Part shown: one piece after another, positions 1-34,937 of the stretch
Position numbering within the stretch: position 1 is the stretch's first letter
Layout of the letters: each line of letters begins with the position of its first letter
IMG/VR virus record: IMGVR_UViG_2571042690_000022
Length of the DNA stretch: 34,937 nucleotides
Origin: a virus
Lineage: Duplodnaviria; Heunggongvirae; Uroviricota; Caudoviricetes
Reading direction: 5' to 3' (one strand)
Program-made: the position numbers and the translations under genes
Notes under the pieces: model-generated
The model's input: the letters and a program-made list of their open reading frames with translations, nothing else
Database searches by the model: none
Told to the model about the DNA's origin: nothing

Positions 1-390
1 TTACTCTTTTTTCTCCGTATCTGCATCGGGTTCATCAGCAAATAGCTTGCCCTGCATCCGATCCAGTTCTTCTTTTCTTACCCGCTTAACCACGCTGTAG
101 ACCCACTGAAGCGAAACACCAAATTTGCGGGCCAGTTCGTGGTGGTTGCGTCCGTTAAACTCCCTGAAGATTTCCCGGTCGCGCTGACTGACCTTCCATA
201 CCATGCCCATCGGGAAATAAACGTTTTGCCCGCCCCAGACCTGCATCATTCGGTTCGCGACGGCCTGACCAATCTGGTCGGCAACTTCGGGCTCAATATC
301 AATAATCTCGCGAACGGTCTCAGAGGTATGCTGTGCCAGTTCCACCAGGAGTTCCGGCCCCTTACTTCGAAACTGATTCAGGTCGCTCAT
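1..390 (-). CDS. mor: Mor-family (Mor/C) transcriptional activator of middle/late genes
   Basis: 129 aa; C-terminal region GGQNVYFPMG...FNGRNHHELARKFGVSLQWVYSVVKRVR resembles the Mor/C family HTH region as recalled from Mu Mor; last gene of the leftward early operon; stop codon at 1-3. Confidence 0.75.
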   Translation of the reverse strand: MSDLNQFRSKGPELLVELAQHTSETVREIIDIEPEVADQIGQAVANRMMQVWGGQNVYFPMGMVWKVSQRDREIFREFNGRNHHELARKFGVSLQWVYSVVKRVRKEELDRMQGKLFADEPDADTEKKE

Positions 391-811
391 GTTTGACTCC
401 CGCAGCTCTGCGCTGCCACTTCTTCAGTTTCTCAATAACACTGCTTGCCTGTTCAGTACTGAGCCAGCGCAGGGCGCTGATGCCCGTTTCCCGCTTGATC
501 CACCTCGCTAATGCATTTTCTGAACGGTCACGAACAATGCCGGCAGCAGCCATTTCAAGCCATAGCGCACGAATTTTCCTGGACTGCGGATGGTTATCAA
601 GCGGTAAACCGGAGCTGGCTTTTCTGGCTGGTTTAACGCGAAAGCCTTTCTTTTTCATGGATTCCAGCACGCAGTTTAGTTGTGTGGTATCCATTCCTTT
701 GGTTGAGGCTTTACCGGTCAGCCCCTGTAACATCTGGCGGTAGGTGTCTTCATCCATACCCAGTTCATTACGGGCAATATGGATAAGCTGTATCAGGCGT
801 TTTTTCTGCAT
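362..811 (-). CDS. gemA: GemA-like early regulatory protein (DUF1018-type, Mu gp16-like)
   Basis: 149 aa; N-terminus MQKKRLIQLIHIARNELGMDEDTYRQML typical of GemA/DUF1018; RBS AAGGAG about 7 nt upstream of ATG at 811; 29-nt overlap with mor as in Mu gemA-mor. Confidence 0.6.
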   Translation of the reverse strand: MQKKRLIQLIHIARNELGMDEDTYRQMLQGLTGKASTKGMDTTQLNCVLESMKKKGFRVKPARKASSGLPLDNHPQSRKIRALWLEMAAAGIVRDRSENALARWIKRETGISALRWLSTEQASSVIEKLKKWQRRAAGVKHERPESVSK

Positions 812-812
812 A

Positions 813-1019
813 TCATCTCCTTTTTTTCAGTCTGTCGGCAACAATGTCGGTTGCAGCTGGCAGGGTGACTGGCCAGAACAACATGACGGCGGTCATGTAC
901 AGGATGTAATGCGCGGTGTCGTAGTGCCTGCCATAGCCCAGGGAACGATGAAGTCTTGCGCTGCATGATCCTGCGTACATATACCAGAAAAGAAAACAGA
1001 CAATGGTTTCAGTAGTCAT
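813..1019 (-). CDS. small hydrophobic (membrane) protein, hypothetical
   Basis: 68-aa ORF from internal ATG at 1019 with GGAGG RBS just upstream (rc of 1023-1035); hydrophobic segments; the longer 813-1175 ORF start is unsupported. Confidence 0.4.
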   Translation of the reverse strand: MTTETIVCFLFWYMYAGSCSARLHRSLGYGRHYDTAHYILYMTAVMLFWPVTLPAATDIVADRLKKRR

Positions 1020-1239
1020 TCTGAATACCTCCCCATTCGATATGAATATTACGGGCAGCAATGACAGGGTCGTTATTCCACCATGCACCTGACATGTATT
1101 TTTCAACCTGTTCGCGTCCGGCAATAACACCAATTGTGATCCCCGGCCTGACGTTCTTAAAAAAGGCGCGGGCAAAAAGGTATCTGGCAGATATTCGGCA
1201 GGCTTTTAATTTCCGGCTTTTACCTGATAGCGTAATCAT
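1009..1239 (-). CDS. hypothetical early protein
   Basis: 76-aa ORF; start overlaps the stop of the upstream gene (coupled arrangement); no recognisable motif. Confidence 0.3.
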   Translation of the reverse strand: MITLSGKSRKLKACRISARYLFARAFFKNVRPGITIGVIAGREQVEKYMSGAWWNNDPVIAARNIHIEWGGIQNDY

Positions 1240-1919
1240 CTGGCCTCCAGTTTCTGTTGTTCCTGCCCACTGACCGGGCGGTGCAGTCTGACGTTCTGCC
1301 CTTCACGAAACCCCGCATAGCGCGAGGCGTCGCCATTGCGGCTTCTTCCCGGTTTACGCGCCCTGGTGGTTTGCGTCTGCGGGTATTTATGTTCCAGCCA
1401 CTGCTGCATCAGTTCACGCTCATCATCGGTCAGGGCAAAGGACTGTATTTCACTGATAACGGCCAGCACCCAGCCTTCGGCAAACTGGTCTCCACGGCTG
1501 GTGCGGGTGGCGGTTTTTATTCTTTTGTTCTGTGCACTGATATACTGCTGACGCGCCTTTTTCAGCTGACGGGCCAGCACTTCCCAGGTGTATGCAGCCA
1601 GTGCCGCACGTTCCCGGTTGCCGTAGAACCCCACAGACGGATGCGTGCCGGGGTGAATGATGGAGTTAACACCAAATACCTCGCGGATGATGTTCATCAG
1701 GCCCAGCATGTAGCGCGGTGGACGGAGACTGCCTGTCGGCCAGTAGTGACTGATGGTTTCATCAATATCACTCATAGCAATGTCGGAATGTGTGATGCCG
1801 TGAACATCCATCAGTTTACGGGCTCGGCGCAGTGCCAGAGCGGCCTCGTGCGGGTTGCCGGATGCGGCCAGCGCCAGCAACTTTTTCAGTTTCTCAATGT
1901 GTTTATTCTGGTCTGTCAT
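1236..1919 (-). CDS. DUF2786-like early protein
   Basis: Start chosen at ATG 1919 (MTDQNKHIEKLKKLLALAASGNPHEAALALRRARKLM, DUF2786-like N-terminus); ATGA overlap with stop of upstream gene at 1916; GGAG RBS about 10 nt upstream. Confidence 0.5.
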   Translation of the reverse strand: MTDQNKHIEKLKKLLALAASGNPHEAALALRRARKLMDVHGITHSDIAMSDIDETISHYWPTGSLRPPRYMLGLMNIIREVFGVNSIIHPGTHPSVGFYGNRERAALAAYTWEVLARQLKKARQQYISAQNKRIKTATRTSRGDQFAEGWVLAVISEIQSFALTDDERELMQQWLEHKYPQTQTTRARKPGRSRNGDASRYAGFREGQNVRLHRPVSGQEQQKLEAR

Positions 1920-2131
1920 TGTTCTGTATCTCCGGTATTTTTCTGCCGTTTCCATGCCCGGACAGCGTCGGACAGCTCTTTCAGGCTGTATGCTGCTTTA
2001 AGCTTTTCCCATAACCACTGTGTTGTTATGTGCATCAGCAGGGCAGCCAGGGCTGCCCCCGCACTGAGGCATGTCGCCAGGCCAGTAAGAATCAGTGTCC
2101 ATGCGGTGATTTCCCTGAGTATGTCAGCCAT
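1916..2131 (-). CDS. small single-pass membrane protein, hypothetical
   Basis: 71 aa with one hydrophobic helix (WTLILTGLATCLSAGAALAALLM); tightly packed in the early operon. Confidence 0.4.
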   Translation of the reverse strand: MADILREITAWTLILTGLATCLSAGAALAALLMHITTQWLWEKLKAAYSLKELSDAVRAWKRQKNTGDTEQ

Positions 2132-2145
2132 TGAATGCCTCCCGG

Positions 2146-2442
2146 TTACTCGTTCGTGTAAATCACGCCCAGTCGTGCAGCCAGACGTTCCAGTTTTTTC
2201 TGTTTGTGGAAGTCAATCAGCCGGTCCATCCCCTGAAGGCGCAGTTGCTCTGTCATGATTTCCACGTCTGCCAGCTCTGCCGCGAGGTCACTTTCGCTGC
2301 CCTGTCCGTTCAGGTTGCGGGCGGCACTGGCCGCCAGTTCAGCGGCCTCTTCTGCCAGTTTCAGGGCCTGTGCGTCCGGCCCGAAACGCTGCAGGGCCAG
2401 ACGGTAGAGGGCGGTGCGGGTGAGTTCGGTGTTTCGTGTCAT
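2146..2442 (-). CDS. MazG-like nucleoside triphosphate pyrophosphohydrolase (all-alpha NTP-PPase)
   Basis: 98 aa; KLAEEAAELAASAA followed by LAAELADVEIMTEQL matches the paired EExxE and ExxD metal-binding helices of small MazG/HisE-like proteins (from memory). Confidence 0.55.
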   Translation of the reverse strand: MTRNTELTRTALYRLALQRFGPDAQALKLAEEAAELAASAARNLNGQGSESDLAAELADVEIMTEQLRLQGMDRLIDFHKQKKLERLAARLGVIYTNE

Positions 2443-2451
2443 GCCGCGCCC

Positions 2452-2724
2452 TCAGTGCTTCCGGCTGACGGTGATGTGCAGGCCGCCTTCTGCAGTGGTT
2501 TCCATCCGGTACGGCACCTCATGCTCTGCCGTGTGGGTGAGTGTGTTCATCAGTACCTGCAGGGCAGCCTCCTTTCCGTTGGTCGCCACAATGGCCTGTG
2601 TGGCCATGCTGATTAGCGCCGTCAGGACGTGCTTCACATCGGTGAGGTCGCGGCATTCACACTCGTTGACATAGTGTTCAACAAGGGTTCGGGTGCGCTG
2701 TCGTGCTTCCTGTGGGGTAATCAT
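2452..2724 (-). CDS. hypothetical early protein
   Basis: 90-aa ORF in operon context; no recognisable motif. Confidence 0.4.
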   Translation of the reverse strand: MITPQEARQRTRTLVEHYVNECECRDLTDVKHVLTALISMATQAIVATNGKEAALQVLMNTLTHTAEHEVPYRMETTAEGGLHITVSRKH

Positions 2725-2915
2725 TGCGAGTCCTCCCTGTCAGGGCGGGAGAATTCCATGACGGGCACGTCTGCCGAAAAATGCTGGCTGCAGTACGGGC
2801 AGACCAGGGTGACGCGTACCGCAGGGATGTGGTATTTACCGGACATCACGGCGATGGCGCTGTGAAAACGCAGGGCTGTTATATCCCTCTCGCACTGAAT
2901 ACATTTAAATATCAT
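2721..2915 (-). CDS. small zinc-ribbon protein (CxxC-N30-CxxC)
   Basis: 64 aa with CIQCERD and CPYCSQH pairs; first gene after the gam-downstream intergenic gap. Confidence 0.4.
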   Translation of the reverse strand: MIFKCIQCERDITALRFHSAIAVMSGKYHIPAVRVTLVCPYCSQHFSADVPVMEFSRPDREDSQ

Positions 2916-3012: not shown

Positions 3013-3543
3013 TTACTGCACATCCTGCTCAAAAGGAATTATTGAAAAATCCTCAATGTCGCTTTTAATGGAAATACCGGGAATATTTTTCACGGCCTCT
3101 TTTTCATTCAGGATAGCGTCTTTATTTATTTCCTCTTTTACACGAATAAAGCGCTCAAGCCCCAGACGTCTCAGTAATTCAATAACATTATCCGCCCCAC
3201 GGATACTGACTGATGGCGGACGGTTTCGCCACTGCACCTCGCCGGTGGTGAGGTTAGCGAACTTCACCTTCCCGTTGCCGGTCAGTTCATCACGGTGTGC
3301 CTCACACCATGTCTGAATACCGGACTGCAGTTCGGCCATGCGTTTTTTCAGGCTCTCGGTGAGCGGGGCATAACGTGCGGTGATATCGCCAATGGCGTCA
3401 TTCATTTCTGTTTCAGCCCTGACCAGTTCACGTTGTGCGTCACCGAGTAGTCTGATTCCCTCAATGACCTCTTCACGTGTCCCCGGCACCCAGAGTGCTG
3501 CTGCGGCCTTGATACGTTTTGCACCTTTTGTACTTTTTGCCAT
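3013..3543 (-). CDS. gam: Gam host-nuclease inhibitor (Mu Gam-like)
   Basis: 176 aa; stretches such as WRNRPPSVSIRGADNVIELLRRLGLERFIRVKEEINKDAIL and IEDFSIIPFEQ closely resemble Mu Gam as recalled. Confidence 0.85.
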   Translation of the reverse strand: MAKSTKGAKRIKAAAALWVPGTREEVIEGIRLLGDAQRELVRAETEMNDAIGDITARYAPLTESLKKRMAELQSGIQTWCEAHRDELTGNGKVKFANLTTGEVQWRNRPPSVSIRGADNVIELLRRLGLERFIRVKEEINKDAILNEKEAVKNIPGISIKSDIEDFSIIPFEQDVQ

Positions 3544-3842: not shown

Positions 3843-5009
3843 TTAAACCCCTTTGACAACGTCAGCGTTGACCTGTGGAACCCCGATTTCAGCGGCCAGA
3901 TTCATGGCGGCTATTACCAGGTTACTGACGGCCAGCGGATACAGCAGGCTGACCATATTTTTACGGTGACTTCCCGGATTGCTCAGGCGGGCACGTATGG
4001 CATCCACTGCACCGGCGTCCATAATGTCCGTCAGCTGTTTACCGGCCCGTTGCAGTTTGAACGTCAGAAATTCTTCAAGGTTATTGTCCAGAGGCAGAAG
4101 TTCGACCACCTCACAGCGCTGAACGACTTCACGGACTTCCATATTGCGTTCAGACAGTTTTGTCGCCAGTTCCGGCTGGCCAATCAGCACGATGGACAGC
4201 AGTTTTTTGAAACCGGACTCCAGCTCAAAAAAGCGTTTGAGGTGTTTCAGTGTCGGAATGGGCAGACTGTGGGCCTCCTCAATCACCAGAACGTGGCTGA
4301 ACCCCGCCTGGCTGCTGTCTTTCAGGACGCGATGCAACTGGCGAAAACGGGCGTCCTGACTGCGTCTGATGCTTTCCAGTGGTGCGATGGTACTGATAAT
4401 GGCTTCGGCAATAGCTGCTGCCTTCAGGGTTTTCCCTTTCACATCGTTGTCTTCCATAGCGATGATGTATGGCTCGATAACAATTACCGGCGCATTCTCG
4501 CGGTTGATACGTTCAGTCAGGTCGCGGCGCAGCGTGGATTTACCCGCACCGGACTCACCGATGACGGCCATAAACCCACCATGACGGGCTGTCTGGTACA
4601 GCGCCTCACGCACGTAGCGAATGTCCGGGGTGGTGAACACATCATCAGAACCCTGCATGGCTTCGTCGGCGAACGGGTCACGGAAAAGACCAAACGCTTT
4701 TTTGGTTGCTGGAAATAACACCTGTTTTTTGAGTAACATATTCTCTTCCTCACTGAGGCTCGTTTTATCTGTGGTACCCGCTGTACGGGGCGTGGCCGCG
4801 CCCTGTACAGCATCAAAACTCTTCGTTGTATCAATCCCCTGACTTTCCAGCCAGGACGCAAGACGCCGGCGCACTTCTCCGGGGCTGGTGCGGGGCCACG
4901 CGTTATGATTCACAATCTGGGCCAGCGTGGCCTCAGAAACATCGACAGCTCTCGCCACCACCGCCTGTGGAATACGGGCCTCTTTCAGTTGCTGCTTCAG
5001 TACCAGCAT
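3843..5009 (-). CDS. transposition ATPase (Mu B-like/TniB-like AAA+ protein)
   Basis: Walker A GESGAGKST, Walker B-like HVLVIEEAH, N-terminal HTH-like segment; start set to ATG 5009 (MLVLKQQ) with GAGGAGGG RBS; directly downstream of the transposase. Confidence 0.8.
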   Translation of the reverse strand: MLVLKQQLKEARIPQAVVARAVDVSEATLAQIVNHNAWPRTSPGEVRRRLASWLESQGIDTTKSFDAVQGAATPRTAGTTDKTSLSEEENMLLKKQVLFPATKKAFGLFRDPFADEAMQGSDDVFTTPDIRYVREALYQTARHGGFMAVIGESGAGKSTLRRDLTERINRENAPVIVIEPYIIAMEDNDVKGKTLKAAAIAEAIISTIAPLESIRRSQDARFRQLHRVLKDSSQAGFSHVLVIEEAHSLPIPTLKHLKRFFELESGFKKLLSIVLIGQPELATKLSERNMEVREVVQRCEVVELLPLDNNLEEFLTFKLQRAGKQLTDIMDAGAVDAIRARLSNPGSHRKNMVSLLYPLAVSNLVIAAMNLAAEIGVPQVNADVVKGV

Positions 5010-5019
5010 GTTTCCCTCC

Positions 5020-6789
5020 TCAGTTGCCGTTAACAATGCTGATAACACTGCTGCGGGCCGGTGTGGTCAGCGTGGCCATGACTTCATCCAGTGCGGCTTC
5101 CGGTACGCCGTCCGGGTACTGTGCCGTTAACTGGCGGTAATGTTCCGGCGTCCAGGTAAGGCCGTCGGCGCTGAACTTATCGCGCAGGGCTTTCGCGGCC
5201 TCCACATGAGTCATGGGACGTTGTTCAGTGCGCGGCCCGCGTACGTCAGAGGCCTGACCACGCTTCGGCATATAGGCCGGAAGTGTGGTGTCGTCGATAT
5301 GTTTATACGGGTCAAGCCGCCCGCCGAACGGCAGCGCCTTCGCCTTGCGTGCGGCGGCTGCATCTGCGGCGTTGTCTGTACCGGTAACCAGCGCTTCGGT
5401 TTCTTTTGCCGCCATCTGTGCCGGGGTTTCCGGCAGGGCTTTGTAACTTTCGCCAAATACCGCCGCGCCTTCAGCAAAGCCAAACTCGTTCTTTCTGACC
5501 TCTTCGACCAGGAAGAACGTCTCGTGGCCGTCCTCACCGGTCAGAACCACCTGTGCCACATCGCTGCGCCATGGGTTACGGGTAATCATCAGTTTTTCAC
5601 CAACCAGTACGCCCGGTACCGTTGATACGTCAAATTCAGTGCCCCGGAACGAGACACGAAGTTTTGGCGTGACTTTGCGGAGTTCTGGTGCCGCCACAGC
5701 CAGTTCACGACATACCTCAACGGAAGGCGCTTTTTTCAGCTGCTCAGCAGTAATCTTCAGCCAGATATCCGTGCGGGTTTTACCGTGGCGGCTGTGAACA
5801 GCCGTGGCGTTAAAGTGGCTGCGCCATTTCGCGGCCAGCGCGTTGAGTTCTTCCAGACTGTGAACCGGCCGGAACTTCAGACCCGGCTCCAGCTTGCGTT
5901 CGATAATGTCACGCGCCTTTTCCACCTGTCCGGTGGCGCGGGCGTTATGCGGCTTGTGCGCTATCAGGTCGATGCCCAGTGAGCGGCACATGTTTTTCGT
6001 CATACCCGCGGTGTTTGCCGAGCCGGGGTCGAGATAGAGTATTTTCGGCACGCCGTGCAGCACGTCTGCGCCGCCACGCTCCTGCATGGCGTTGATAAGC
6101 ACAGAACACAGGTTCTCACCTGATTCCGCGCCCGTCACATACTCAACGTAAATCCAGCCGCTGGCATGGTCGGTAATCTCGTAACTCCACACGCGGTCAC
6201 TGGCGATACGGGCAAGGTTAGCGGGCTTGTTCTTGTAGAACTTCGCGCTGTCCATCACCTGCAGCCCTTTATGTCCATTGCTCAGGTAGTAAAGCGTGCA
6301 GAGTGAGGCGTCAATCTGCCAGACATGATTGGGATGCAGACTGGCCACTTCGGTATGTGGTGCAGGGGCATCCAGTTGTTCCGGGTGCAGGCCATAGTTA
6401 CGCAGAGCACGGCTGATGGCATCTTCAGACAACGGGAAAAACTCACTGGTGGTTTCATCTGTTCTGCCTGCGGTGATAAAGCCGTTAGCCCGCAGGGTTT
6501 CCACTGCATCTGCGATGGAATAGAGACGCTTACCGTTCTTGCGGGTGGCCTCACGCAGTGTGGCAGATATCAGCGCGGCTTCGTCGCGGGTCAGGGCGCT
6601 GCGCCCGGCATCGGCGCGTTTTTTGCGTTTATCAGTCACAGATACCTCCTTCAGCCTGCGCAGCAGAGTGGCGCGGGACATGCCAAGTTCAGCACAGGCA
6701 GCGTCGTATATTGCACCGCGTTTACCATGCCCCGCGTCACGTGCCGCGCGGGCTGTTTCAACCAGTTTTTCAGTCAGTGCCGGGGTCAT
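5020..6789 (-). CDS. DDE transposase (Mu A-like)
   Basis: 589 aa; candidate DDE residues in WQIDAS, YLDPGS and GQVEKA; gene order ner-like, A, B as in transposable phages. Confidence 0.9.
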   Translation of the reverse strand: MTPALTEKLVETARAARDAGHGKRGAIYDAACAELGMSRATLLRRLKEVSVTDKRKKRADAGRSALTRDEAALISATLREATRKNGKRLYSIADAVETLRANGFITAGRTDETTSEFFPLSEDAISRALRNYGLHPEQLDAPAPHTEVASLHPNHVWQIDASLCTLYYLSNGHKGLQVMDSAKFYKNKPANLARIASDRVWSYEITDHASGWIYVEYVTGAESGENLCSVLINAMQERGGADVLHGVPKILYLDPGSANTAGMTKNMCRSLGIDLIAHKPHNARATGQVEKARDIIERKLEPGLKFRPVHSLEELNALAAKWRSHFNATAVHSRHGKTRTDIWLKITAEQLKKAPSVEVCRELAVAAPELRKVTPKLRVSFRGTEFDVSTVPGVLVGEKLMITRNPWRSDVAQVVLTGEDGHETFFLVEEVRKNEFGFAEGAAVFGESYKALPETPAQMAAKETEALVTGTDNAADAAAARKAKALPFGGRLDPYKHIDDTTLPAYMPKRGQASDVRGPRTEQRPMTHVEAAKALRDKFSADGLTWTPEHYRQLTAQYPDGVPEAALDEVMATLTTPARSSVISIVNGN

Positions 6790-6804: not shown

Positions 6805-7122
6805 TTATCCGATTCTGGCGGCAATTTTTCTGGCGAGGTCGCACAGTGTTTCGCCATCGCAGGTTTTCACCACGGTATTTACCGGTTGCGGTGCAACTAC
6901 CGGGCGTAATGCTGACTGATTCTGCAGACGTCTTATCTGCTGCATCAGCATCACCTCCATCGTCAGTACAAACGGGTGCGTCTCCTGTGCGGGTACGCAG
7001 ATTTCACCGGAAGGGGTCACCACGCGGAAACCCTGCACCATCTCCGGCAGCAGATTACACAGTGCGTGCCCCAGTGCCTCCGGGCTGTCCATCAGGGTAT
7101 TTTGTGTGTTATTCGTATTCAT
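6805..7122 (-). CDS. hypothetical early protein
   Basis: 105-aa ORF between the upstream early gene and the transposase; no motif recognised. Confidence 0.4.
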   Translation of the reverse strand: MNTNNTQNTLMDSPEALGHALCNLLPEMVQGFRVVTPSGEICVPAQETHPFVLTMEVMLMQQIRRLQNQSALRPVVAPQPVNTVVKTCDGETLCDLARKIAARIG

Positions 7123-8042
7123 TACTGCATATCCTCCGGTCGGTTGATTTCAGGTTCCGGTTCGGTCAGCCAGGCGGGGGCATCGTTACCCGATGGAGCG
7201 GCCTCAAGGTCAAACGTCTCACGTAATGCATGAACACTGCGTTCAATCTGGCAGACCAGACCGGCCATGAAATCTCTGGGGGTATCGATCATGTTTTTGG
7301 TGCAGTATTCACACAGGGTCTCAAAAACACTGGACAGCCGGACGGCGATAGCCGATTCGGCCTCAACCGCTAATGCCGTCACTTCCGCCCGCAATTTTTT
7401 CAGTTCTTCGTCTGGCGGCGGAGGTTGCAGGCGCGATTTCTTCTCCAGTTTTGTGGCCAGTTCGTTGATTTTTTCGTCCTTTCCGGCAAGCACCTGTTGC
7501 TGAGCTGCGTTGGTTTCGCGCGCTTCACGCAGGGCGGCCTTCAGTTCGCGGCTGGTCATGCGATCAATATCATCAAGCGTTGCACCGGCGACGGTTCCAC
7601 CATCAGCTAATGCGTCGAGTTCTTCGTCATCCAGAACCATCAGTTCATATAACTTGGTTTTTCCCAAAACGCTCAGCGCTGAGCGTTTTGGCTGTTCATC
7701 TCCATTGCCGAGAAATTTCACGCTGGCCTGCATCATGCGACGAGCTACCTGTGGTGCTAATCCGAGGTCGTTTTCCAGAATATTTGTGAAATCACCATGC
7801 GGTTCATTTTCTTTTAAGATGATCAGCCGCTTACCCGCTTCCAACATAGATTCAGCACTCTGCGCCATATAAAAACGTGCTTCGTGAACGATGCGTTCAC
7901 GTTCATAAGGCAGTCCATCACCAAACTGCTGCATGATCTCCATGCGATGCTGTGTCATGGCATTCAGGCTGACGTTGAGATCATCCGACAGCGGTACATC
8001 GGCGTTCAGTTCAGTGTTAATCGGTGATTTGGTACGTCCCAT
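7122..8042 (-). CDS. hypothetical early protein (possibly DUF3102-like)
   Basis: 306-aa ORF with AAGGAG RBS about 8 nt upstream of ATG 8042; predicted coiled-coil middle region; family assignment is a recollection only. Confidence 0.45.
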   Translation of the reverse strand: MGRTKSPINTELNADVPLSDDLNVSLNAMTQHRMEIMQQFGDGLPYERERIVHEARFYMAQSAESMLEAGKRLIILKENEPHGDFTNILENDLGLAPQVARRMMQASVKFLGNGDEQPKRSALSVLGKTKLYELMVLDDEELDALADGGTVAGATLDDIDRMTSRELKAALREARETNAAQQQVLAGKDEKINELATKLEKKSRLQPPPPDEELKKLRAEVTALAVEAESAIAVRLSSVFETLCEYCTKNMIDTPRDFMAGLVCQIERSVHALRETFDLEAAPSGNDAPAWLTEPEPEINRPEDMQ

Positions 8043-8052
8043 TGATTACTCC

Positions 8053-8361
8053 TTACAAACGACTACCTGAAATGACACGTTGGTTAATTTCGTTAATACG
8101 ATCCTGTGCACGTGCCATCTCGTTACTGTGGGCCATGGCGATCTGCAGTAACTGGATGCCCGGTGCAAAACGTCCGTTCTCCAGTTTCAGAGCCAGCCCT
8201 TCTTCAATGAGGGTGTTGAGTGCCCGGTTGATGTTTGCCGGTGACTCGTGCAGTGCTGTCGCCAGTTCACCGTTAGAAATACCGTTCAGGGCATGACCGC
8301 GCAGCGCTTTGAGTACCCGGAGGATGCGACTGCCGGAGCTTGAAACATTCGTCTTACTCAT
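8053..8361 (-). CDS. winged-helix DNA-binding protein (IclR/MarR-like HTH)
   Basis: SRILRVLKAL...GISNGELATAL...NINRALNTLIEEGL resembles a wHTH N-terminal domain; start uncertain (8361 or 8367). Confidence 0.45.
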   Translation of the reverse strand: MSKTNVSSSGSRILRVLKALRGHALNGISNGELATALHESPANINRALNTLIEEGLALKLENGRFAPGIQLLQIAMAHSNEMARAQDRINEINQRVISGSRL

Positions 8362-8413
8362 CTGCATACCTCTTTTGCGATATGTGATAACCTTTTACAA
8401 AGACTCAAAATAT

Positions 8414-8602
8414 TTAGGCCGCCTGAGCTGTTGATTTCAGTCCCAACTTCACGGCGATTTCATGGGATTTACCGTAACGGGCTTTGGTCTGCCCGTTGAG
8501 AACGCGGTATACCTCATTGCGGTTGTAGCCGTTTTCTTCTGCCCAGCGGGTGAAAGTGATCCCGCGCTGGCGGAAGAGAGCTTTGACTTGTTCTGCAGTC
8601 AT
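8414..8602 (-). CDS. Ner-like DNA-binding protein (Cro-like early regulator)
   Basis: 62 aa; pattern resembles the Ner/Nlp family; first gene of the leftward operon, divergent from the repressor; AAGGAG RBS 7 nt upstream of ATG 8602. Confidence 0.6.
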   Translation of the reverse strand: MTAEQVKALFRQRGITFTRWAEENGYNRNEVYRVLNGQTKARYGKSHEIAVKLGLKSTAQAA

Positions 8603-8695
8603 CGTTGTCTCCTTTGTTGATGCAATGATGTTTGCCTTATATGTGTTAGATTATTGCTCATAATTATGAGCATATCAAGATAGAGATTCACTTTT
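8603..8695. promoter_or_regulatory. divergent early-promoter / repressor-promoter switch region
   Basis: 93-bp AT-rich gap between divergent ner-like and repressor genes; contains the 8655-8672 palindrome and a TATAAG-like -10 (rc of 8636-8641) suitably placed for the leftward operon. Confidence 0.5.
8655..8672. promoter_or_regulatory. candidate operator: 18-bp perfect palindrome TGCTCATAATTATGAGCA
   Basis: Perfect dyad read directly from the sequence; its right half TTATGAGCA recurs at 8694-8702 overlapping the repressor start codon. Confidence 0.5.
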
Positions 8696-9052: not shown

Positions 9053-9137
9053 TACTGACCCGGACACAAAGGACAGGTGGTTGATCTGGATGCTTTCAGA
9101 AAACATCGCCAGTGACATAGTGGAAGTTGTTTGGTTT

Positions 9138-9170
9138 ACCGGAAAGCATTGTGCTTTCCGGTTTTGTTTC
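9138..9170 (+). terminator. rho-independent terminator-like hairpin
   Basis: Stem ACCGGAAAGCA (9138-9148), loop TTG, stem TGCTTTCCGGT (9152-9162), then TTTGTTTC; lies between the convergent repressor and dam 3' ends. Confidence 0.5.
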
Positions 9171-21480: not shown

Positions 21481-21481
21481 C

Positions 21482-24581: not shown

Positions 24582-24583
24582 CG

Positions 24584-25380: not shown

Positions 25381-25385
25381 TACAG

Positions 25386-25406: not shown

Positions 25407-25455
25407 TCTGCGTTATCCCCTCACGTCTTTTCACCTTCCCCGGAGGTTAACCACT

Positions 25456-28407: not shown

Positions 28408-29291
28408 TGTTTGCCGTACTGGGTGATATTGAGTTTGAGCTGATTACCTACTGGGACGGCTTCGAGGCCACGTTCGGCGTCGATTATGCGGAGCATGCCC
28501 GCATCGGGGGTAAGCCTGGTCTGCAGTTCGTCGGCGACAGGCTGGACGAAATCCAGATAACTCTGGTTTTCCATCAGCATTATTGTGTACCCGATGTGGA
28601 GCTGGCGAGACTGCGAACAGCCATGAAAGCCCATCAGGCACTGGCGCTGGTCTTCGGCAACGGTGACTATCGCGGCTGGTTCGTGATCACCGATGTGACT
28701 GCAACCAGCGAGCAGACTGACAGTACCGGCAACGTGCTGGCTGTCAGTGCCACCGTGTCTCTCCGGGAATACACCGGTGACCCGAAAAATCCTCTGCAAC
28801 CACCGGCAATACGCACGAAGCTCCCGGGTGTCGGGGCGGTCTCCGGTGCCATACCTTCACCTTCAGGGGTGGCGCAGTTCATCCGCAACGGCGTCAACTA
28901 TGCGAAACAGGCGCAGTCTGTACTCCAGACCACTATCAGCGCCGTTCGGGTGACACAGAAAATGAAGGATAACCCCGTTGTCGCACTGACCCGTGTGCCG
29001 GGGCTGATGAGCGGACTGGGTAATATCTCCGGGGCTCTGGGGAAAAGTGTTCCGGCGTTTAACGCACTCTCTGAATCCATGCCCGATGCCATCAGTCTGG
29101 CCAGAACAGCCAGCGAAGCAGCCACGTATGTACAGCAGGCACAGTCTGCGCTGAGTGGTGTGGACAAAAGAAATATTGCAGGTGCTCTGGATACCGTTTC
29201 CGGGCAGCTTAACGCCGTCGGCACAGCATTCAACCGCATGTCTCCGGGATTAAGTGCAATGGCCGCCAGAATACTGACGAGGAGTGTGTGA
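28407..29291 (+). CDS. tail protein (Mu N / DNA circularisation protein-like, short form)
   Basis: 294 aa immediately after tape measure; N-terminus MFAVLGDIEFE typical of this position in Mu/P2-type tails; assignment by synteny. Confidence 0.55.
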   Translation: MFAVLGDIEFELITYWDGFEATFGVDYAEHARIGGKPGLQFVGDRLDEIQITLVFHQHYCVPDVELARLRTAMKAHQALALVFGNGDYRGWFVITDVTATSEQTDSTGNVLAVSATVSLREYTGDPKNPLQPPAIRTKLPGVGAVSGAIPSPSGVAQFIRNGVNYAKQAQSVLQTTISAVRVTQKMKDNPVVALTRVPGLMSGLGNISGALGKSVPAFNALSESMPDAISLARTASEAATYVQQAQSALSGVDKRNIAGALDTVSGQLNAVGTAFNRMSPGLSAMAARILTRSV

Positions 29292-29503
29292 TGTTTCTTG
29301 AACATGTTACCCGTGACGGAGAGCGCTGGGATTCGCTGGCATGGCAGTACTACGGTGACCCGCTGGGCTATCCCCGGATTATTGCCGCCAATCCGCACGT
29401 GGCCATCACGCCGGTGCTGCCCTCCGGGCTGTTGTTACTGATCCCGGTGATTGAGGCTGAAGAAGCCCGTACAGAAGAGGATATTGCCCCATGGCTGAGA
29501 TAA
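29288..29503 (+). CDS. tail protein X-like (LysM-like)
   Basis: 71 aa; WQYYGDP...IIAANPHV...LPSGLLLLIP pattern resembles P2 gpX-type proteins (recollection). Confidence 0.55.
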   Translation: MMFLEHVTRDGERWDSLAWQYYGDPLGYPRIIAANPHVAITPVLPSGLLLLIPVIEAEEARTEEDIAPWLR

Positions 29504-30645
29504 ACAGCACTGCGCAAGTCACATCAGCGTTAACCGGCGTCAGCGATGTGCTGACACCGGTGTTCACTCTGTGGTATCTGCAGAAAAACATCACCTCTGA
29601 TATCGCGCCTTATGTCACCCGTGTGACCTGGAGCGATAACATCAAAAATGAGTCCGATACCATTGAGGTGGAGCTGGACGACACCGATGGCCGCTGGCTG
29701 GATAAATGGTATCCGGGCAAGGGTGACACGCTGACGCTGAAAATGGGCTATCAGGGCGAGAAGCTGCTGTCCTGCGGTACGTTCTCTATAGACGAGATCG
29801 AAGTGAGTTCGCCCGCTTCCGTTGTTTCTATCCGTGGGGTGGCCACCTCGGTTAACAGTGCCCTGCGGACTAAAACCAGTCGTGGTTTTGAGAACACCAC
29901 GCTGGCAGCTGTTGCGGGGCGGATTGCCAGAAAGCACCGGCTGAAACTGGTGGGCAGCATTGAGTCCATCAGAATCGACCGGGTGACCCAGTATGCTGAA
30001 ACCGACGTGGGTTTTCTGCGCCGGCTGGCCAGCGAGTATGGTTATGCAGTGAAAGTGGTCAGTGACCAGCTGATTTTTTCTCATCTGGCCACACTGCGCA
30101 GTCAGGAGCCGGTCAGGCAGTTAAAACCGCAGGATGTGGCCCGCTTTTCCCTGCGTGACACCATCAACCGGGTCTATAAATCTGCAAAGGTAAAACACCA
30201 GAAAAGCAGCAGTAAAAAACTGATCGTCTACGAAGCTGATGGTGGTACCCGTGAAAGCGACAAAAAGCTCAAAGGTGGTAAGGTTACCAGCGCTGACTCA
30301 CTTAAAGTTAACAGCCGCGTCAGCGACCCGGACAGTGCCCGGATTAAAGCGGATTCAGCACTGGCCAGACATAACGAATACCAGCAGAACGGCTCCCTGA
30401 CGCTGACGGGAACACCTCAACTGACAGCAGGCAACAAAATTGAACTGGTGAGTTTTGGGCAGTTATCCGGGCCATGGCTCATAACCACTGCCCGCCATGC
30501 GTTTGACCGTAACAGCGGCTACACCACAGAGCTGGAAGTGGCACGGGGGCCAGTCACAAGAGGGAAAAAACAAAAAACTCAGAAACTCACGGTTTATCAC
30601 CCGGATGGCAGTACATCGACGGTGATTAAGGAGAAGAAAAAATGA
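29491..30645 (+). CDS. baseplate hub protein (gpD-like / Mu P-like)
   Basis: 384 aa; synteny before the spike protein. Confidence 0.65.
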   Translation: MAEINSTAQVTSALTGVSDVLTPVFTLWYLQKNITSDIAPYVTRVTWSDNIKNESDTIEVELDDTDGRWLDKWYPGKGDTLTLKMGYQGEKLLSCGTFSIDEIEVSSPASVVSIRGVATSVNSALRTKTSRGFENTTLAAVAGRIARKHRLKLVGSIESIRIDRVTQYAETDVGFLRRLASEYGYAVKVVSDQLIFSHLATLRSQEPVRQLKPQDVARFSLRDTINRVYKSAKVKHQKSSSKKLIVYEADGGTRESDKKLKGGKVTSADSLKVNSRVSDPDSARIKADSALARHNEYQQNGSLTLTGTPQLTAGNKIELVSFGQLSGPWLITTARHAFDRNSGYTTELEVARGPVTRGKKQKTQKLTVYHPDGSTSTVIKEKKK

Positions 30646-31238
30646 CTGGTGTCACTCGTCAGGTCGGTACGGTCAGTGCCGTTGATGCCGACAGGGTTCA
30701 GGCCCGCGTTCGTCTGCCTGAATGCGATAACCTGCGCACAAACTGGCTTAACGTGCTGCAGCGCAATACCCAGGATAACAAAGATTACTGGCTCCCTGAC
30801 GTGGGGGAGCAGGTTGAGGTGCTGCTCGATGCCAACGGCGAGGATGGTGTTATTCTGGGCGCGGTGTATTCAGACGTCGATAAACCACCGTTCAGTGACA
30901 AAAATATCCGGGGAACCCGGTTTGCTGATGGTGCAGAGTACAGCTACAACCGGAAGACGCACACTCTGATCATCCGGGGCGGCATTGAGCATATTGTCAT
31001 TGAGTGTGGTGCTGATGTGGTATTGAAAACACAGAAAGCCACGATTGACGCACCGGAAACCGAACTTACCGGAGATCTGCGTGTCAGGGGTAAGCTGATT
31101 TACGAAGGAGGCATGGCGGGTTCTGGTGGTGAAGGTGTTACCGCGACCATCCATGGCAATATCGAGATTAAAGGGAATGTCCATGCCACGGGCAGTATGT
31201 TGTCTGATGGCGAAAACTCCAGCCACCACTCCCACTGA
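30642..31238 (+). CDS. baseplate spike / assembly protein V-like (Mu gp45-like)
   Basis: 198 aa; position and size typical of gpV-type spike; C-terminal Gly-rich region. Confidence 0.65.
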   Translation: MTGVTRQVGTVSAVDADRVQARVRLPECDNLRTNWLNVLQRNTQDNKDYWLPDVGEQVEVLLDANGEDGVILGAVYSDVDKPPFSDKNIRGTRFADGAEYSYNRKTHTLIIRGGIEHIVIECGADVVLKTQKATIDAPETELTGDLRVRGKLIYEGGMAGSGGEGVTATIHGNIEIKGNVHATGSMLSDGENSSHHSH

Positions 31239-31243: not shown

Positions 31244-31261
31244 TTAAACGCCTTTAATATC
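31244..31261 (+). promoter_or_regulatory. late-promoter motif copy 4 (TTAAACGCCTTTAATATC) upstream of baseplate genes
   Basis: Fourth copy of TTAA-N6-TTAAWATC, 32 nt before ATG 31293; followed by the hairpin at 31275-31292. Confidence 0.4.
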
Positions 31262-31292: not shown

Positions 31293-31640
31293 ATGAAAAC
31301 AACCTCAGTATTCTGGCAACCAGCCCTGCAGGCTCCCGGCGAAATTGTCCGGGGGCTGGATGATATCCGGCAGGCGATTCAAATTATCCTGCGGACTCCC
31401 CGCGGCAGCGACCCGCATCGCCCGGAGTTCGGCAGCAATCTGCATCTTTATATCGACTGGCCTGTAGACCGGGCCATTCCGCATGTGGTGCGCGAATCCG
31501 TCGATGCCATCCGGCGCTGGGAGCCCCGCTGCCAGCTTATGTCAGTTAAACCCGCCGTCGACGGCGAACATCTTACGCTCCGGGTGAGCTGGAAAGGCTC
31601 AGACGGACAGACCCGGACTCAGGAGCTGCTATGGCGCTGA
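31293..31640 (+). CDS. baseplate protein (GPW/gp25-like, Mu gp46-like)
   Basis: 115 aa; size and position before the J-like gene typical of the gpW/gp25 wedge protein. Confidence 0.7.
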   Translation: MKTTSVFWQPALQAPGEIVRGLDDIRQAIQIILRTPRGSDPHRPEFGSNLHLYIDWPVDRAIPHVVRESVDAIRRWEPRCQLMSVKPAVDGEHLTLRVSWKGSDGQTRTQELLWR

Positions 31641-32734
31641 CAGAACCCGATTTTATTGAACGCGATGCCGACAAAATCACGGCAGAAATGATTGCGAAGT
31701 ATGAAGCGGATACCGGCAAAACGCTGTACCCGGCACAGGCAGAACGTCTGCTGATTGATCTGTGGGCCTATCGCGAAATGCTGGTCAGGGTTGCGGTACA
31801 GGAGGCAGCAAAGCAGAATCTGGTCGCCTTTGCCCGTGAGCCGATGATTGATTACCTCGGTGAACTGGTCGGTGTATACCGTCTTGCCGCGCAGCCTGCC
31901 ACCACCACGCTCCAGTTCTCCGTAGATGAGGCACTGGCCATTGATGTGCTGATCCCGGCAGGCACCCGCGTCAGCGCTTCCGACAGCGTTATTTTTGCCA
32001 CCGATACAGATGTGGTACTGAAGGCCGGATTGCTGCTGGTCAATGTCACGGCCACCTGTACCGAACCCGGTACCGCTGGTAACGGCTGGCAACCTGCGCA
32101 GGTCAGTCAGTTACTCGATGAGATTGATAACGTTAACCTGCTGGTGAGCAATCTGATGGCCAGTTCCGGCGGTTCAGAACAGGAAGACGATGACAGGCTC
32201 CGGGAGCGTATCAGGCTGGCCCCGGAGTCATTCACCAATGCCGGAAGCCGTGGCGCATACCGCTTTCATGCCATGCAGGCCCATCCCAACATTGTCGATG
32301 TTGCTGTGCTTTCCCCGGTTCCCGGGACCGTAGATCTGTATCCGCTGCTCAGTACCGGTCTGCCGGACGGCGGTGTTCTCACGCTGGTAGAGAGTTTCTG
32401 CTCTGATGAGAAAGTCAGGCCACTCACTGATACAGTGCGGGCTAAAACACCAGTGAAGGTGGATTACACCATTGAAGCCAGGATTACGATCTATCGTGAT
32501 CAGGATGCCAGGTCTGTAAAAGATGCCGCTAACAGCGCCATACAGAACTGGGTGGCATCACGTGCCGCCACGCTGGGGCGCGATATTGTCCCCAGCCAGA
32601 TTATCAGTGCATTGTCCGTTTCCGGGGTGTACCAGGTTGAACTGGTGACACCGGCACTGCGGGTGGTGGCAGAAAACGAATGGGCAAACTGTACGGCAAT
32701 CACTCTTAACATGACTGGAGTGTCTGATGACTGA
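31631..32734 (+). CDS. baseplate J-like protein (Mu gp47-like)
   Basis: 367 aa; synteny W-J-I; coupled starts. Confidence 0.75.
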   Translation: MALTEPDFIERDADKITAEMIAKYEADTGKTLYPAQAERLLIDLWAYREMLVRVAVQEAAKQNLVAFAREPMIDYLGELVGVYRLAAQPATTTLQFSVDEALAIDVLIPAGTRVSASDSVIFATDTDVVLKAGLLLVNVTATCTEPGTAGNGWQPAQVSQLLDEIDNVNLLVSNLMASSGGSEQEDDDRLRERIRLAPESFTNAGSRGAYRFHAMQAHPNIVDVAVLSPVPGTVDLYPLLSTGLPDGGVLTLVESFCSDEKVRPLTDTVRAKTPVKVDYTIEARITIYRDQDARSVKDAANSAIQNWVASRAATLGRDIVPSQIISALSVSGVYQVELVTPALRVVAENEWANCTAITLNMTGVSDD

Positions 32735-33305
32735 GCCATTACAACTCCCGCCACCGCTTGAGGGTGATATCAGTCTCAGGACGCTGGGAAGACTGGCAGG
32801 ACGGCTGGATAACATCGACCTGAGCGTACTGATGGTCTTTCTCGTCGATATCGTCGACAGTTCCGCGCTGCCATGGCTGGGCGAGCAGTTCTCACTGTCT
32901 GGCGATGGCTGGGAGCTGGCGGAATCGGACGATGTTCGCCGCATGCTTATAAAAGCAGCCATCGAACTGCACCGGTATAAAGGGACGCCGTGGTCAATCC
33001 GGGAAGTTATCCGCCGTTTTGGCTTTGGTGAAGTGGATCTGATTGAAGGCACAGGTCGTCTCAGTTACGACGGCAATCGCAGCTATAACGGACTGTTTGT
33101 TCATGGAGATGCAGCCGCCTGGGCAGTTTATCGCGTTATTCTGAAACAGCCCATTACTAACGATCAGGCCGCGATGCTGCGTCAGACGCTGGCTGCATTT
33201 GCACCGGCCCGCTGCCATCTGGCCAGCCTGGAGTATCAGTCTGTGGCCATTCGCTATAACAATACCGCCATCCATGATGGCAGTTATAACCACGGGAGCA
33301 GTTGA
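32727..33305 (+). CDS. tail protein (P2 gpI-like / Mu gp48-like)
   Basis: 192 aa following the J-like gene and preceding the tail fiber. Confidence 0.6.
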   Translation: MTEPLQLPPPLEGDISLRTLGRLAGRLDNIDLSVLMVFLVDIVDSSALPWLGEQFSLSGDGWELAESDDVRRMLIKAAIELHRYKGTPWSIREVIRRFGFGEVDLIEGTGRLSYDGNRSYNGLFVHGDAAAWAVYRVILKQPITNDQAAMLRQTLAAFAPARCHLASLEYQSVAIRYNNTAIHDGSYNHGSS

Positions 33306-33514
33306 TTATGGGAAACCTGAATGAAACAGAAAAGTGGGAAGAAAATATCTATCAACTGGAGACATCAGATCCGGTTCTGGGTGGTGCAGACGGGATATCA
33401 AATCGAGCCCCCCGGCAACTGGCAAACAGGACGAAATGGCTGAAGAAGAAAACGGAGGAAGCCGCACAGTCACTGGCTGAACACGTACGTTCCCGTAACC
33501 ACCCGGACGCGACA

Positions 33515-33960
33515 CTGACAGCTAAGGGGTTCACCCAACTGAGCAGTGCCACCAACAGCACCTCTGAAACGCTGGCCGCCACACCAAAAGCGGTCAAGGC
33601 TGCATACGACCTGGCAGCCGGCAAGGCGCCTGCCAGCCACACTCACCCGTGGAGTCAGATAACGGGAGTGCCTGCGGCTTCACTGACGGCAAAAGGCACC
33701 GTACAACTGAGCAGCGCCACGGACAGTCAATCAGAAACTGAGGCTGCCACGCCGAAGGCGGTCAAGGCTGCATACGACCTTGCAGCCGGCAAGGCGCCCG
33801 TCAGCCACACTCACCCGTGGAGTCAGATAACGGGAGTGCCTGCTGCCTCGCTGACGGCAAAAGGCACCGTACAATTGAGCAGTGCCATCAACAGCACGTC
33901 TGAAATACTGGCCGCCACACCGAAAGCGGTCAAGGCTGCATACGATCTGGCAAACGGAAA
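33515..33960 (+). repeat. three tandem in-frame 168-bp (56-aa) repeats inside the tail fiber gene (approximate span)
   Basis: CTGAC(A/G)GC units begin at 33515, 33683 and 33851; protein repeat LTAKGxxQLSSAxxSxSExxAATPKAVKAAYDLAxGK, a typical phage tail fibre repeat. Confidence 0.7.
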
Positions 33961-34159
33961 ACAACCGGCAGATGCCACGCTCACTGCTCTGGCAGGACTT
34001 GCCACTGCAGCAGATCGGTTGCCTTATTTTACCGGAGCAGACCGCGCAGAGCTGGCAACCCTTACAGCTATTGGTCGCGCTATTATCGCTAAGGGCAGTA
34101 TAAAAGATGTCCTCAATTACCTTGGTTTAGGAGAAGGCTCGGCGCTACCCGTTGGTGTG

Positions 34160-34421
34160 CCTGTTCCGTGGCCCACCGCCACACCGCCAGCAGGCTGGTT
34201 AAAGTGCGACGGGCGCGCCTTTACAAAAGAACAATATCCTGTTCTGGCCAGAGTCTACCCGACCCTCCGTCTTCCCGATTTACGCGGTGACCTGTTCCGT
34301 GGCCCACCGCCACACCGCCAGCAGGCTGGTTAAAGTGCGACGGGCGCGCCTTTACAAAAGAACAATATCCTGTTCTGGCCAGAGTCTACCCGACCCTCCG
34401 TCTTCCCGATTTACGCGGTGA
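34160..34421 (+). repeat. perfect 131-bp direct tandem duplication (2 copies) within the tail fiber gene
   Basis: Copy 1 at 34160-34290 and copy 2 at 34291-34421 are identical by eye; 131 is not a multiple of 3. Confidence 0.85.
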
Positions 34422-34769
34422 GTTTATCCGTGGATGGGACGACGGGCGCAAAGTTGATACAGGACGTAAGTTGCTGTCCGCACAAGGGGCAACGCTGTTA
34501 AGAACAGCAATGCTGGATTATTATAACCAGGACACTACGGGAACCTCGGGGATAGTCGGCATGGGATTCAACAATGAAGATTCCATTACAGACCTTCGTG
34601 AGGGCAGCTTTAAAATGCCGGACGGGACAACATTCAGCGATCCTGTCGTGGCAATGTCAGACAATGGTATGCAGGCTACTATTCTGACCTCTATCAGAAG
34701 CGGGTATGCGAAGGGTATCACTGTCAGACCCCGTAGCATTGCACTTAATTACATTGTGAGGGCAGTTTA

Positions 34770-34937
34770 ATGAGTAACACTGCAGTTCTGGATGAAAACG
34801 GTATCGCCACTGTAGCGGGCGATATCACTGTATATCACTATGACGAGGAAACCCGGGAATACACCTCATCCTCTGTGGAGTATCTCGCCCTTGGGGTGGG
34901 TACTCCGGCACATTCGTGCGCCGATGCACCGCCGGAG
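34770..34937 (+). CDS. tail fiber assembly protein (chaperone), 3' end truncated by window
   Basis: ATG at 34770 overlaps the tail fibre stop (TAATG); N-terminus resembles Tfa-type proteins; ORF runs off the window end. Confidence 0.55.
   Translation, partial: MSNTAVLDENGIATVAGDITVYHYDEETREYTSSSVEYLALGVGTPAHSCADAPPE

Follow-up and report, generated by a model that had tools for sequence, protein, structure and literature searches.

A transposable Escherichia coli prophage of the BcepMu lineage with early and late modules on opposite strands

The stretch of viral DNA considered here (the window; 34,937 nucleotides, record IMGVR_UViG_2571042690_000022) carries a Mu-like early module that is read leftward and a late module that is read rightward, which raises the question of whether the arrangement belongs to one element, to two prophages lying end to end, or to a genome that was recently rearranged. 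The source of the window was almost certainly a single transposable prophage of the BcepMu lineage, about 37 kb long, of which the window covers nucleotides 164 to ∼34969; 163 bp at the left end and ∼2.1 kb at the right end are missing from it. Judging from sequence identity, the window corresponds to most of an element that has already been described, prophage Phi2 of E. coli ST131 strain EC958, which is the same element as phage PhiKM. Identity to EC958 Phi2 was 99.98% over window positions 1 to 34302, and identity to PhiKM (PQ738613.1) was 100% over the common sequence (∼34 kb), with the same gene order, Dam gene (M.EcoMIV), and invertase crossover site (PMC4134206, PMC4659465). PhiKM was deposited as an isolated phage and is listed in GenBank under Bcepmuvirus. 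Its record is a rearranged "partial genome," rotated and with a sequencing gap, in which 343 bp of non-phage DNA adjoin the left end; these would fit, but do not prove, virion DNA with variable host sequence at its flanks, as in replicative transposition with headful packaging. A reading of the window as a mere rotation of that record was rejected, both because the window covers 683 bp more of the invertible segment and because the left end is missing from it. The prophage was present in 646 of 5,426 E. coli genomes (∼12% of complete E. coli genomes).

The gene content and strands within the window were as follows. Pfam matches and strands bore out the first-pass annotation, which had read the early genes (ner-like, transposase, ATPase, gam, gemA, and mor) as running leftward to position 1; mor is the last gene of this leftward operon, and its stop codon is formed by window bases 1 to 3. 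The repressor and the entire lysis, head, and tail cluster were confirmed to run rightward, with head and tail genes on the plus strand to position 34333. All genes in the window other than the tail fiber gene were intact. The start of the ATPase gene is placed at 5009 in RefSeq. The DUF3102 and HTH genes of the early operon matched BcepMu gp10 and gp12, respectively (tblastn), and the 105-aa early protein had no BcepMu match.

Features of the window, with positions in window coordinates
Feature	Position	Strand	Evidence or content
mor	1-390	-	Pfam PF08765, E = 1.3e-43; 54% to BcepMu gp01; 30% to Mu Mor, opposite strand
gemA (gp16 family)	362-811	-	Pfam PF06252, E = 8e-41; BcepMu gp02 on same strand, Mu gemA on opposite strand
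Small early genes	813-2915	-	DUF2786/DUF7168 protein, 1236-1955; NTP pyrophosphohydrolase-like, 2146-2442; others
gam, host-nuclease inhibitor	3013-3543	-	Pfam PF07352, E = 1e-40; 61.5% to Mu Gam
ExeA-like AAA ATPase	3843-5048	-	Pfam AAA_22, E = 4e-20; 59% to BcepMu gp08
DDE (rve) transposase, BcepMu/B3 (Tn552-like) lineage	5020-6789	-	Pfam rve; 68% to BcepMu gp09
Promoter-proximal early genes	6805-8367	-	105-aa protein; DUF3102 protein, 7122-8042; IclR-type HTH regulator, 8053-8367
ner-like small HTH, first gene of early operon	8414-8602	-	Weak HTH_31/HTH_35 Pfam; 46% to BcepMu gp16
Divergent control region	8603-8695		Leftward sigma-70-like promoter
cI/Cro-type HTH repressor	8696-9052	+	Pfam HTH_3, E = 5e-15; Phage_CI_repr, E = 2e-5
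Variable accessory region	9169-11446		Dam-type methylase and three ORFs
D12-class Dam-type adenine methylase	9169-10023	-	Pfam and PADLOC methyltransferase matches
Accessory ORF	10124-10339	-	
Accessory ORF	10338-10742	+	
Accessory ORF	10718-11446	-	
Late-promoter candidate 1	11510-11525	+	TAACGCGCTTTAAAAT; 51 nt before holin ATG; syntenic BcepMu copy at 11486
Lysis genes and start of head genes	11577-18834	+	Holin, SLT endolysin, Rz-like spanin; TerS, TerL, portal, Mu F-/G-like head genes
Holin	11577-11927	+	Pfam
SLT endolysin	11930-12670	+	Pfam
Late-promoter candidate 2	18977-18992	+	TAAAGCAGATTAAAAT; 56 nt before protease/scaffold gene; syntenic BcepMu copy at 18813
Protease/scaffold, major capsid, head completion, tail sheath, tail tube	19049-24865	+	44-76% to BcepMu gp32-gp40
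Late-promoter candidate 3	24894-24909	+	TAATCTCCTTTAATAT; directly after hairpin 24872-24887
Tail chaperone, tape measure, P2 U/X/D/V-like tail/baseplate genes	24963-31238	+	Tape measure, 25456-28407
Late-promoter candidate 4	31245-31260	+	TAAACGCCTTTAATAT; 32 nt before gpW-like gene; syntenic BcepMu variant at 30775
Baseplate W/J/I-like, tail fiber H, start of tail-fiber assembly gene	31293-34937	+	

The suggestion in the first-pass annotation that BcepMu-type Mu-like phages have opposed early and late modules was supported by synteny, by the taxonomy of PhiKM, and by published descriptions (PMC3091646, PMC2771037, PMC5977238). Homologues of 35 of 51 genes were detected in BcepMu (NC_005882, type of Bcepmuvirus) by tblastn, at 31 to 76% amino acid identity, all of them collinear and on the same strand. 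In BcepMu, genes 1 to 13 are bottom-strand genes and genes 17 to 52 are top-strand genes, with the lysogeny control region at the interface (PMC2771037). The element likewise has a bottom-strand early cluster directed toward the left end with Mor as the last gene, and a control region with the repressor at the strand interface (PMC2771037, PMC3091646); an rve transposase from the Tn552/IS1604-like lineage together with an ExeA-like ATPase; TG...CA termini with repeated transposase-binding sites (PMC2628397, PMC2771037); and transposition into many sites, accompanied by a short target duplication. Also common to both are a holin-SLT-Rz cassette for lysis, head genes like those of Mu, and tail genes like those of P2. 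The differences are a Mu-type gam that BcepMu lacks, the accessory-region Dam methylase, an invertible tail fiber segment with a Gin-like invertase where BcepMu has no inversion system (PMC2771037), and the BcepMu acyltransferase gp53, which had no match in the element. Megablast of the window gave no BcepMu nucleotide match, and the protein identities are those given above, although PhiKM is nonetheless placed under Bcepmuvirus in GenBank; genus-level practice of the ICTV is ∼70% nucleotide identity over the genome.

Comparison with Mu (NC_000929), which is also a transposable temperate myovirus with TG...CA ends, gave a mixed picture. The two share homologues of Mor, GemA, Gam, TerL, the portal, head proteins F and G, and the Gin invertase (77% identity), and their early blocks have the same functional order (repressor, ner, transposase, ATPase, gam, gemA, and mor). 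However, in tblastn searches mor, gemA, and gam matched Mu on the opposite strand and in reversed order, whereas TerL, the portal, F, G, one baseplate gene, and the tail fiber matched on the same strand, so that, relative to the late genes, the early block is mirrored. The C, Mom, and Com genes of Mu are absent, and the tail is P2-like, unlike that of Mu. The traits of Muvirus that the element does not have are homologues of Mu A and B, the Mu orientation, and sequential Mor and C activators. The earlier description of the early genes as A- and B-like held for function but not for sequence: the DDE transposase and the ExeA-like ATPase are functional analogues of Mu A and Mu B, but sequence homology was not detected (tblastn, no match at E ≤ 1), Mu A having no match anywhere in the element and Mu B only one, spurious, match to the entire element (E = 0.13). 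Because the transposase and ATPase are not homologous to Mu A and B, the "inversion relative to Mu" denotes analogous modules in mirror-image arrangement, and an actual inversion event is not demonstrable.

The same mirror-image early block is found in B3 (AF232233, Beetrevirus), with Mor and GemA at a left end that starts with TGA and has similar repeats, transposase genes B and A on the minus strand, followed on the plus strand by a c2-like repressor, holin, and endolysin. The window's transposase is 56% identical to B3 transposase A. B3 itself is a siphovirus whose tail genes are unrelated, and it differs in host and in GC content. These comparisons show that the mirror-image early block goes with the Tn552/B3-type transposase rather than with the type of tail. 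For B3, inversion of the early operon has been published (PMC5977238). Since this layout is the defining, published organization of BcepMu-like and B3-like phages, the orientation was already known and is not unusual.

It was also considered whether the orientation arose by recent inversion, or by assembly error, in one genome of an otherwise Mu-oriented phage. The matching PhiKM record is itself rearranged, partial, and gapped, and the window contains a suspicious 131-bp tandem duplication. However, more than 600 independently assembled complete E. coli genomes have the same orientation, as do Klebsiella phage KP12, Escherichia phage Phi06_2974 B, BcepMu, and B3. Among 69 phage records there was no Mu-oriented relative with this type of transposase, which lay at ∼5 to 8 kb on the minus strand wherever a record started at the left end. 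A recent inversion or error therefore seems very improbable.

The ends of the element were located just outside the window, in line with the earlier statement that no end repeats lie within it: 163 bp to the left of position 1, so that host DNA starts 163 bp past the mor stop codon, and ∼2.1 kb to the right of the window end. Other genomes supplied the junctions that define them, four independent ones on the left and three on the right; strain N73 (L006), whose copy is internally deleted and truncated on the right, contributed a left junction only. The termini read 5'-TGATTAG...GCGCATCA-3', and each end has two GATAWWT sites at the positions that they occupy in BcepMu (14 to 20 and 37 to 43), an architecture that aligns with both BcepMu ends. 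Three independent insertions, in ycaL, an FHIPEP pseudogene, and gspL, were flanked by 6-bp target duplications (TTCTTC, GCCTCC, and CCTGGG, respectively) rather than the 5-bp duplication that had been expected. The target duplication of Mu is 5 bp. The reconstructed empty site matched 800 of 800 bases unbroken in Nissle 1917 and others and was intact in thousands of genomes. Further copies lie next to cysE, yehK, and genes encoding SWIM, WGR, and phosphopantetheine-binding proteins, and there are many different insertion sites across E. coli.

These junctions bear directly on the alternative, raised in the first-pass annotation, that two separate prophages abut tail to tail or head to head somewhere within 9053-11576. 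Divergent gene orientation and the lower GC content (0.46 to 0.51) and mixed strands of the accessory region between the blocks would fit such a junction. However, at three independent chromosomal sites a single pair of inverted ends with a single 6-bp duplication brackets the entire 37 kb, and the empty site is intact without either half. Neither half is complete alone, the left block having no structural genes and the right block no transposase or activator, and BcepMu and B3, which are sequenced phage genomes, are arranged likewise. No end-like sequence was found within the window with a regular expression for the two-site architecture or with short blastn searches using the terminal segments, which returned only chance matches of 9 to 14 nt. 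The interval 9053-11576 is linked to the phage: its accessory region was present in 626 of the 5,426 genomes, about the count for the prophage itself, and encodes PHROG phage families (4490, 2266, and 3787). Because this interval contains neither end-like sequence nor host DNA, the two-prophage alternative is refuted, and its residual probability is negligible. As both ends lie outside the window, the status of the locus as a single element rests on the near-identical copies in other genomes; no observation spoke against it. This widespread ST131 prophage can now be filed correctly as a BcepMu/B3-type transposable phage, and the false lead of a rearrangement or of fused prophages is removed.

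The region between the two strand clusters has the features of an immunity switch. The leftward promoter consists of a -35 element, TTGATA (8678-8673), and a -10 element, AATAAT (8655-8650); the 17-nt spacer between them is occupied by the perfect 18-bp palindrome TGCTCATAATTATGAGCA (8655-8672). The repressor start codon is overlapped by a third half-site, TTATGAGCA (8694-8702). The palindrome and third half-site are putative repressor operators. A strong hairpin terminator (9138-9162) follows the repressor gene. The D12 methylase in the accessory region beyond it is M.EcoMIV of EC958 (PMC4659465). In two relatives (L007 and L010) this region is swapped for other genes, and a PADLOC search for defense systems in the accessory genes of the window and of L007 returned the methyltransferase only and assigned no defense system.

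Taken with the gene order, this arrangement suggests how the element may work. In the central switch the operator would cover the leftward promoter, with the cI-type repressor read rightward on one side and the 8.6-kb early operon read toward the left end on the other. Lifting of repression would allow the early operon to supply the transposition machinery, which would act on the TG...CA ends with their paired GATAWWT sites and generate the 6-bp target duplications. Mor, as the last early product, would then activate the genes for lysis, head, and tail, which are read rightward, probably through four promoters without a -35 element that share TAA-N5-WTTAAWAT.

It is possible that the layout is as described but that this copy is a fixed, non-inducible remnant in which the regulatory scheme no longer operates. 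The ST131 element occupies the same ycaL site in 358 genomes, insertions of ISEc23 or IS1 are frequent in the element, the copy in strain N73 is degraded, and the window's tail fiber gene is frameshifted. However, every other gene in the window is intact, PhiKM, with its 34 kb of identical sequence, was submitted as an isolated phage, and closely related copies occur at many sites, with up to three copies in some genomes, which indicates recent transposition. A remnant seems unlikely, but appreciably less so than the alternatives considered above.

The element has a single Mor/C-type activator. The earlier remark that no C-like second activator is present held for the whole 37-kb element, in which Mu C and Mu Mor both matched only mor. 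A 16-bp motif lies upstream of each of four late gene groups. This motif, TAA-N5-WTTAAWAT, occurred four times, only on the plus strand and only in gaps between late genes; it was defined post hoc, from the very sites that it describes. Of the four syntenic positions in BcepMu, three have the motif. The second candidate is preceded by hairpins (18817-18834 and 18900-18913). In the Pm, Plys, PI, PP, and Pmom regions of Mu nothing was shared with the motif, and there was a single relaxed match elsewhere in Mu. A sigma-70 consensus scan of the late cluster gave matches no more common than in shuffled sequence, and none at the motif sites. We tentatively propose that BcepMu-type phages may use a two-step cascade, compared with the three steps of Mu, in which a single Mor directly activates four late promoters that carry the motif and are without -35 elements; we regard this as a possibility rather than as the expected outcome. 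The motif was not described in the literature examined, but it may already have been published, because Summer 2004 (BcepMu) and Braid 2004 (B3) fell outside that coverage. The exact ends, 6-bp target duplication, candidate operator, and four candidate late promoters are useful for annotating or engineering the prophage.

At the right of the window, the tail fiber H gene extends from 33302 to 34333 and then continues out of frame to 34770, where the tail-fiber assembly gene begins, itself truncated at the end of the window. The crossover site of the DNA invertase lies at 34110-34135, and all sequence to its right is inside the invertible segment (PMC4134206, Table 3). The tail fiber gene is broken by a frameshift from a 131-bp tandem duplication; the extra copy (34160-34421) is perfect and sets the window apart from EC958 Phi2 and PhiKM. 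This duplication suggests that the window's copy of the element may be defective or misassembled.

Pfam gene calls and their strands bore out the proposal of the first-pass annotation that the early and late modules of the window are oppositely oriented. The early operon extends 8.6 kb toward the left end, with mor as the last gene. Two explanations had been offered for this arrangement, a BcepMu-type layout or two inversely abutting prophages. In order to compare the layout with those of known phages, 51 window proteins were used as tblastn queries against complete phage genomes. BcepMu matched 35 of the 51, with order and strand conserved in all cases and with similar start positions for the holin (11555 in BcepMu, 11577 in the window) and TerS (13778 versus 13938). 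Pseudomonas phage B3, the transposase of which is 56% identical to that of the window, also had the window layout. These results support the BcepMu-type reading.

Features of the window, and the loci carrying the element ends
Feature	Position	Strand	Remark
Mor	1-390	-	Pfam
GemA	362-811	-	Pfam
Gam	3013-3543	-	Pfam
AAA_22 ATPase	3843-5048	-	Pfam
rve transposase	5020-6789	-	Pfam
HTH regulator	8053-8367	-	Pfam
ner-like HTH protein	8414-8602	-	Pfam
cI-type repressor	8696-9052	+	Pfam
D12 Dam methylase and three function-unassigned ORFs	between repressor and holin		
Holin, SLT endolysin	holin from 11577	+	Pfam
Head and tail genes	3' of lysis genes	+	
TAA-N5-WTTAAWAT copies	11510-11525; 18977-18992; 24894-24909; 31245-31260	+	
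Ends and 6-bp target duplications	L002 11838-12000; L003 4573-4632		outside window

Nine of the 51 proteins had matches in Mu. The Mu genes for TerL, portal, F, G, one baseplate protein and the tail fibre were on the same strand as their window counterparts, whereas mor, gemA and gam were on the opposite strand in reversed order. Therefore, considering also the layout of BcepMu and B3, the early block mirrors that of Mu, as initially suggested. The annotated Mu and BcepMu records display both layouts, one each, and the layout of the group is described in the part of PMC3091646 that cites Summer et al. Because neither the transposase nor the ATPase of the element resembles Mu A or B in sequence, "inversion" describes the layout and not a reconstructed event.

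The BcepMu backbone of the element carries two Mu-type modules that are absent from BcepMu, gam (61.5% identity to Mu Gam) and a gene for a Gin-like invertase (77% identity to Mu Gin) at the right end, outside the window (positions 36398-36937 of the element in strain EC958). The right end also has an invertible tail-fibre segment; an inversion system is lacking in BcepMu (PMC2771037). A further difference from BcepMu is the Dam methylase in the accessory region. All of these amount to ordinary mosaicism.

The element itself has already been deposited and described, and its layout is the textbook one of a known group. In megablast searches, window positions 1-24000 matched Escherichia phage PhiKM (PQ738613.1) with 100% identity; its 34,674-bp record, designated a "partial genome", is placed in Bcepmuvirus by GenBank. 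For the same positions, identity was ∼86% to both Klebsiella phage KP12 and Escherichia phage Phi06_2974 B. Of 5426 complete E. coli genomes, 646 contained this stretch. ST131 strains, including EC958 and JJ1887, matched the right part of the window, and direct alignment of positions 1-34302 with EC958, where the element spans 37,048 bp, gave 99.98% identity. The crossover site Phi2_5prime of EC958 prophage Phi2 (PMC4134206, Table 3) was located at 34110-34135, and the Dam-type methylase is M.EcoMIV of PMC4659465. Because position, invertible tail-fibre segment and Dam homologue agree, the element is EC958 prophage Phi2. The PhiKM record is rotated, so that the left phage end is internal (20234-20739). 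Adjoining this end are 343 bp that do not belong to the phage and bear the annotation Fe2+ ABC transporter permease; they are either host flank or packaged host DNA.

The possibility of two abutting prophages was evaluated at the element ends. Four independent left junctions were compared, in PhiKM, ycaL (ST131), cysE (N73) and an FHIPEP pseudogene (AF23), and their flanks part directly before 5'-TGATTAGACTTGAGATAAATG, which places the left end 163 bp before the window begins. On the right side, three junctions terminate in ...CATTTATCGCGCGGCGCATCA-3'. TG...CA ends with repeated sites, as anticipated in the first-pass annotation, were thus found outside the window, but the flanking direct repeats (TTCTTC, GCCTCC and CCTGGG) are 6 bp long rather than the expected 5 bp. 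Such termini have been noted for BcepMu-type elements with rve transposases (PMC2628397). Both element ends align with both BcepMu ends, sharing invariant TGA (positions 1-3) and GATA..T (positions 14-20 and 37-43), and the B3 left end resembles them. The ST131 insertion interrupts ycaL just past its start codon; RefSeq places a ycaL start within the left phage end.

An 800-bp empty-site construct, in which one copy of the duplication joins the left flank to the right flank, was matched unbroken (800/800 bases) in strains including Nissle 1917, and at least 80% of it was covered in 4953 genomes. A single pair of ends with 6-bp duplications and an intact empty site argue against two abutting prophages. 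Furthermore, no end-like sequence was found inside the window, and region 9053-11576 encodes PHROG phage families and was found in 626 genomes, approximately the number carrying the prophage. Together with the exchange of genes by relatives between the same flanking genes, this refutes the two-prophage alternative.

That exchange takes place between the repressor and the holin (window 9169-11446; 10938-13110 and 28444-30616 in the relatives' loci L007 and L010), where the flanking genes on both sides are constant and the contents differ. The window has the Dam methylase and three function-unassigned PHROG proteins; the relatives encode proteins of 328 and 193 aa and a 158-aa P-loop protein with the annotation "ABC transporter ATPase", the gene for which shares the 3' part of the 242-aa ORF of the window (10718-11446). 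PADLOC made no defence assignment for the accessory genes.

Within the region, the best sigma-70-like promoter is in the 93-bp gap at 8603-8695; it is directed leftward and matches 10 of 12 consensus positions. Its 17-nt spacer is occupied by a perfect 18-bp palindrome, TGCTCATAATTATGAGCA (8655-8672), and a third half-site, TTATGAGCA (8694-8702), overlaps the repressor start codon. The palindrome and third half-site are likely to serve the cI-type repressor as operators. Downstream of the repressor gene is a strong terminator (9138-9162). Across the full element, Mu C and Mu Mor queries both matched only mor, so there is one activator rather than two, in agreement with the earlier report that a C-like second activator was lacking.

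The 16-bp pattern TAA-N5-WTTAAWAT occurs exactly four times, always in the late cluster. The copies lie 32 to 56 nt ahead of the genes that open late gene groups, which are those for the holin, the protease, the tail chaperone and gpW. The chance expectation of 0.01 matches is not an independent test because the pattern was derived from the same four sites. The pattern recurs in BcepMu at 11486, 18813 and 30775, which correspond by synteny to three of the four sites; Mu late promoter regions differ from it. None of the four sites has a -35/-10 consensus, and hairpins precede two of them. These sites are candidate Mor-dependent late promoters.

A perfect 131-bp tandem duplication (34160-34421), absent from EC958, starts 25 bp downstream of the crossover site and shifts the reading frame, so that the tail-fibre ORF ends at 34333 instead of 34770. 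Either genuine recombination or misassembly of the invertible segment could account for the duplication. The tape measure gene has internal repeats of ∼261 bp (27254-27806), and the tail fibre gene has 2.5 copies of a 168-bp repeat (33536-33952); about four more copies in the relative at L007 give a 667-aa fibre. Many ST131 copies of the prophage have an IS1 insertion in gam (L002, 15013-15880) or an ISEc23 insertion, and the N73 copy is truncated on its right side and has lost a large internal part, which suggests that the prophage is decaying in some lineages.
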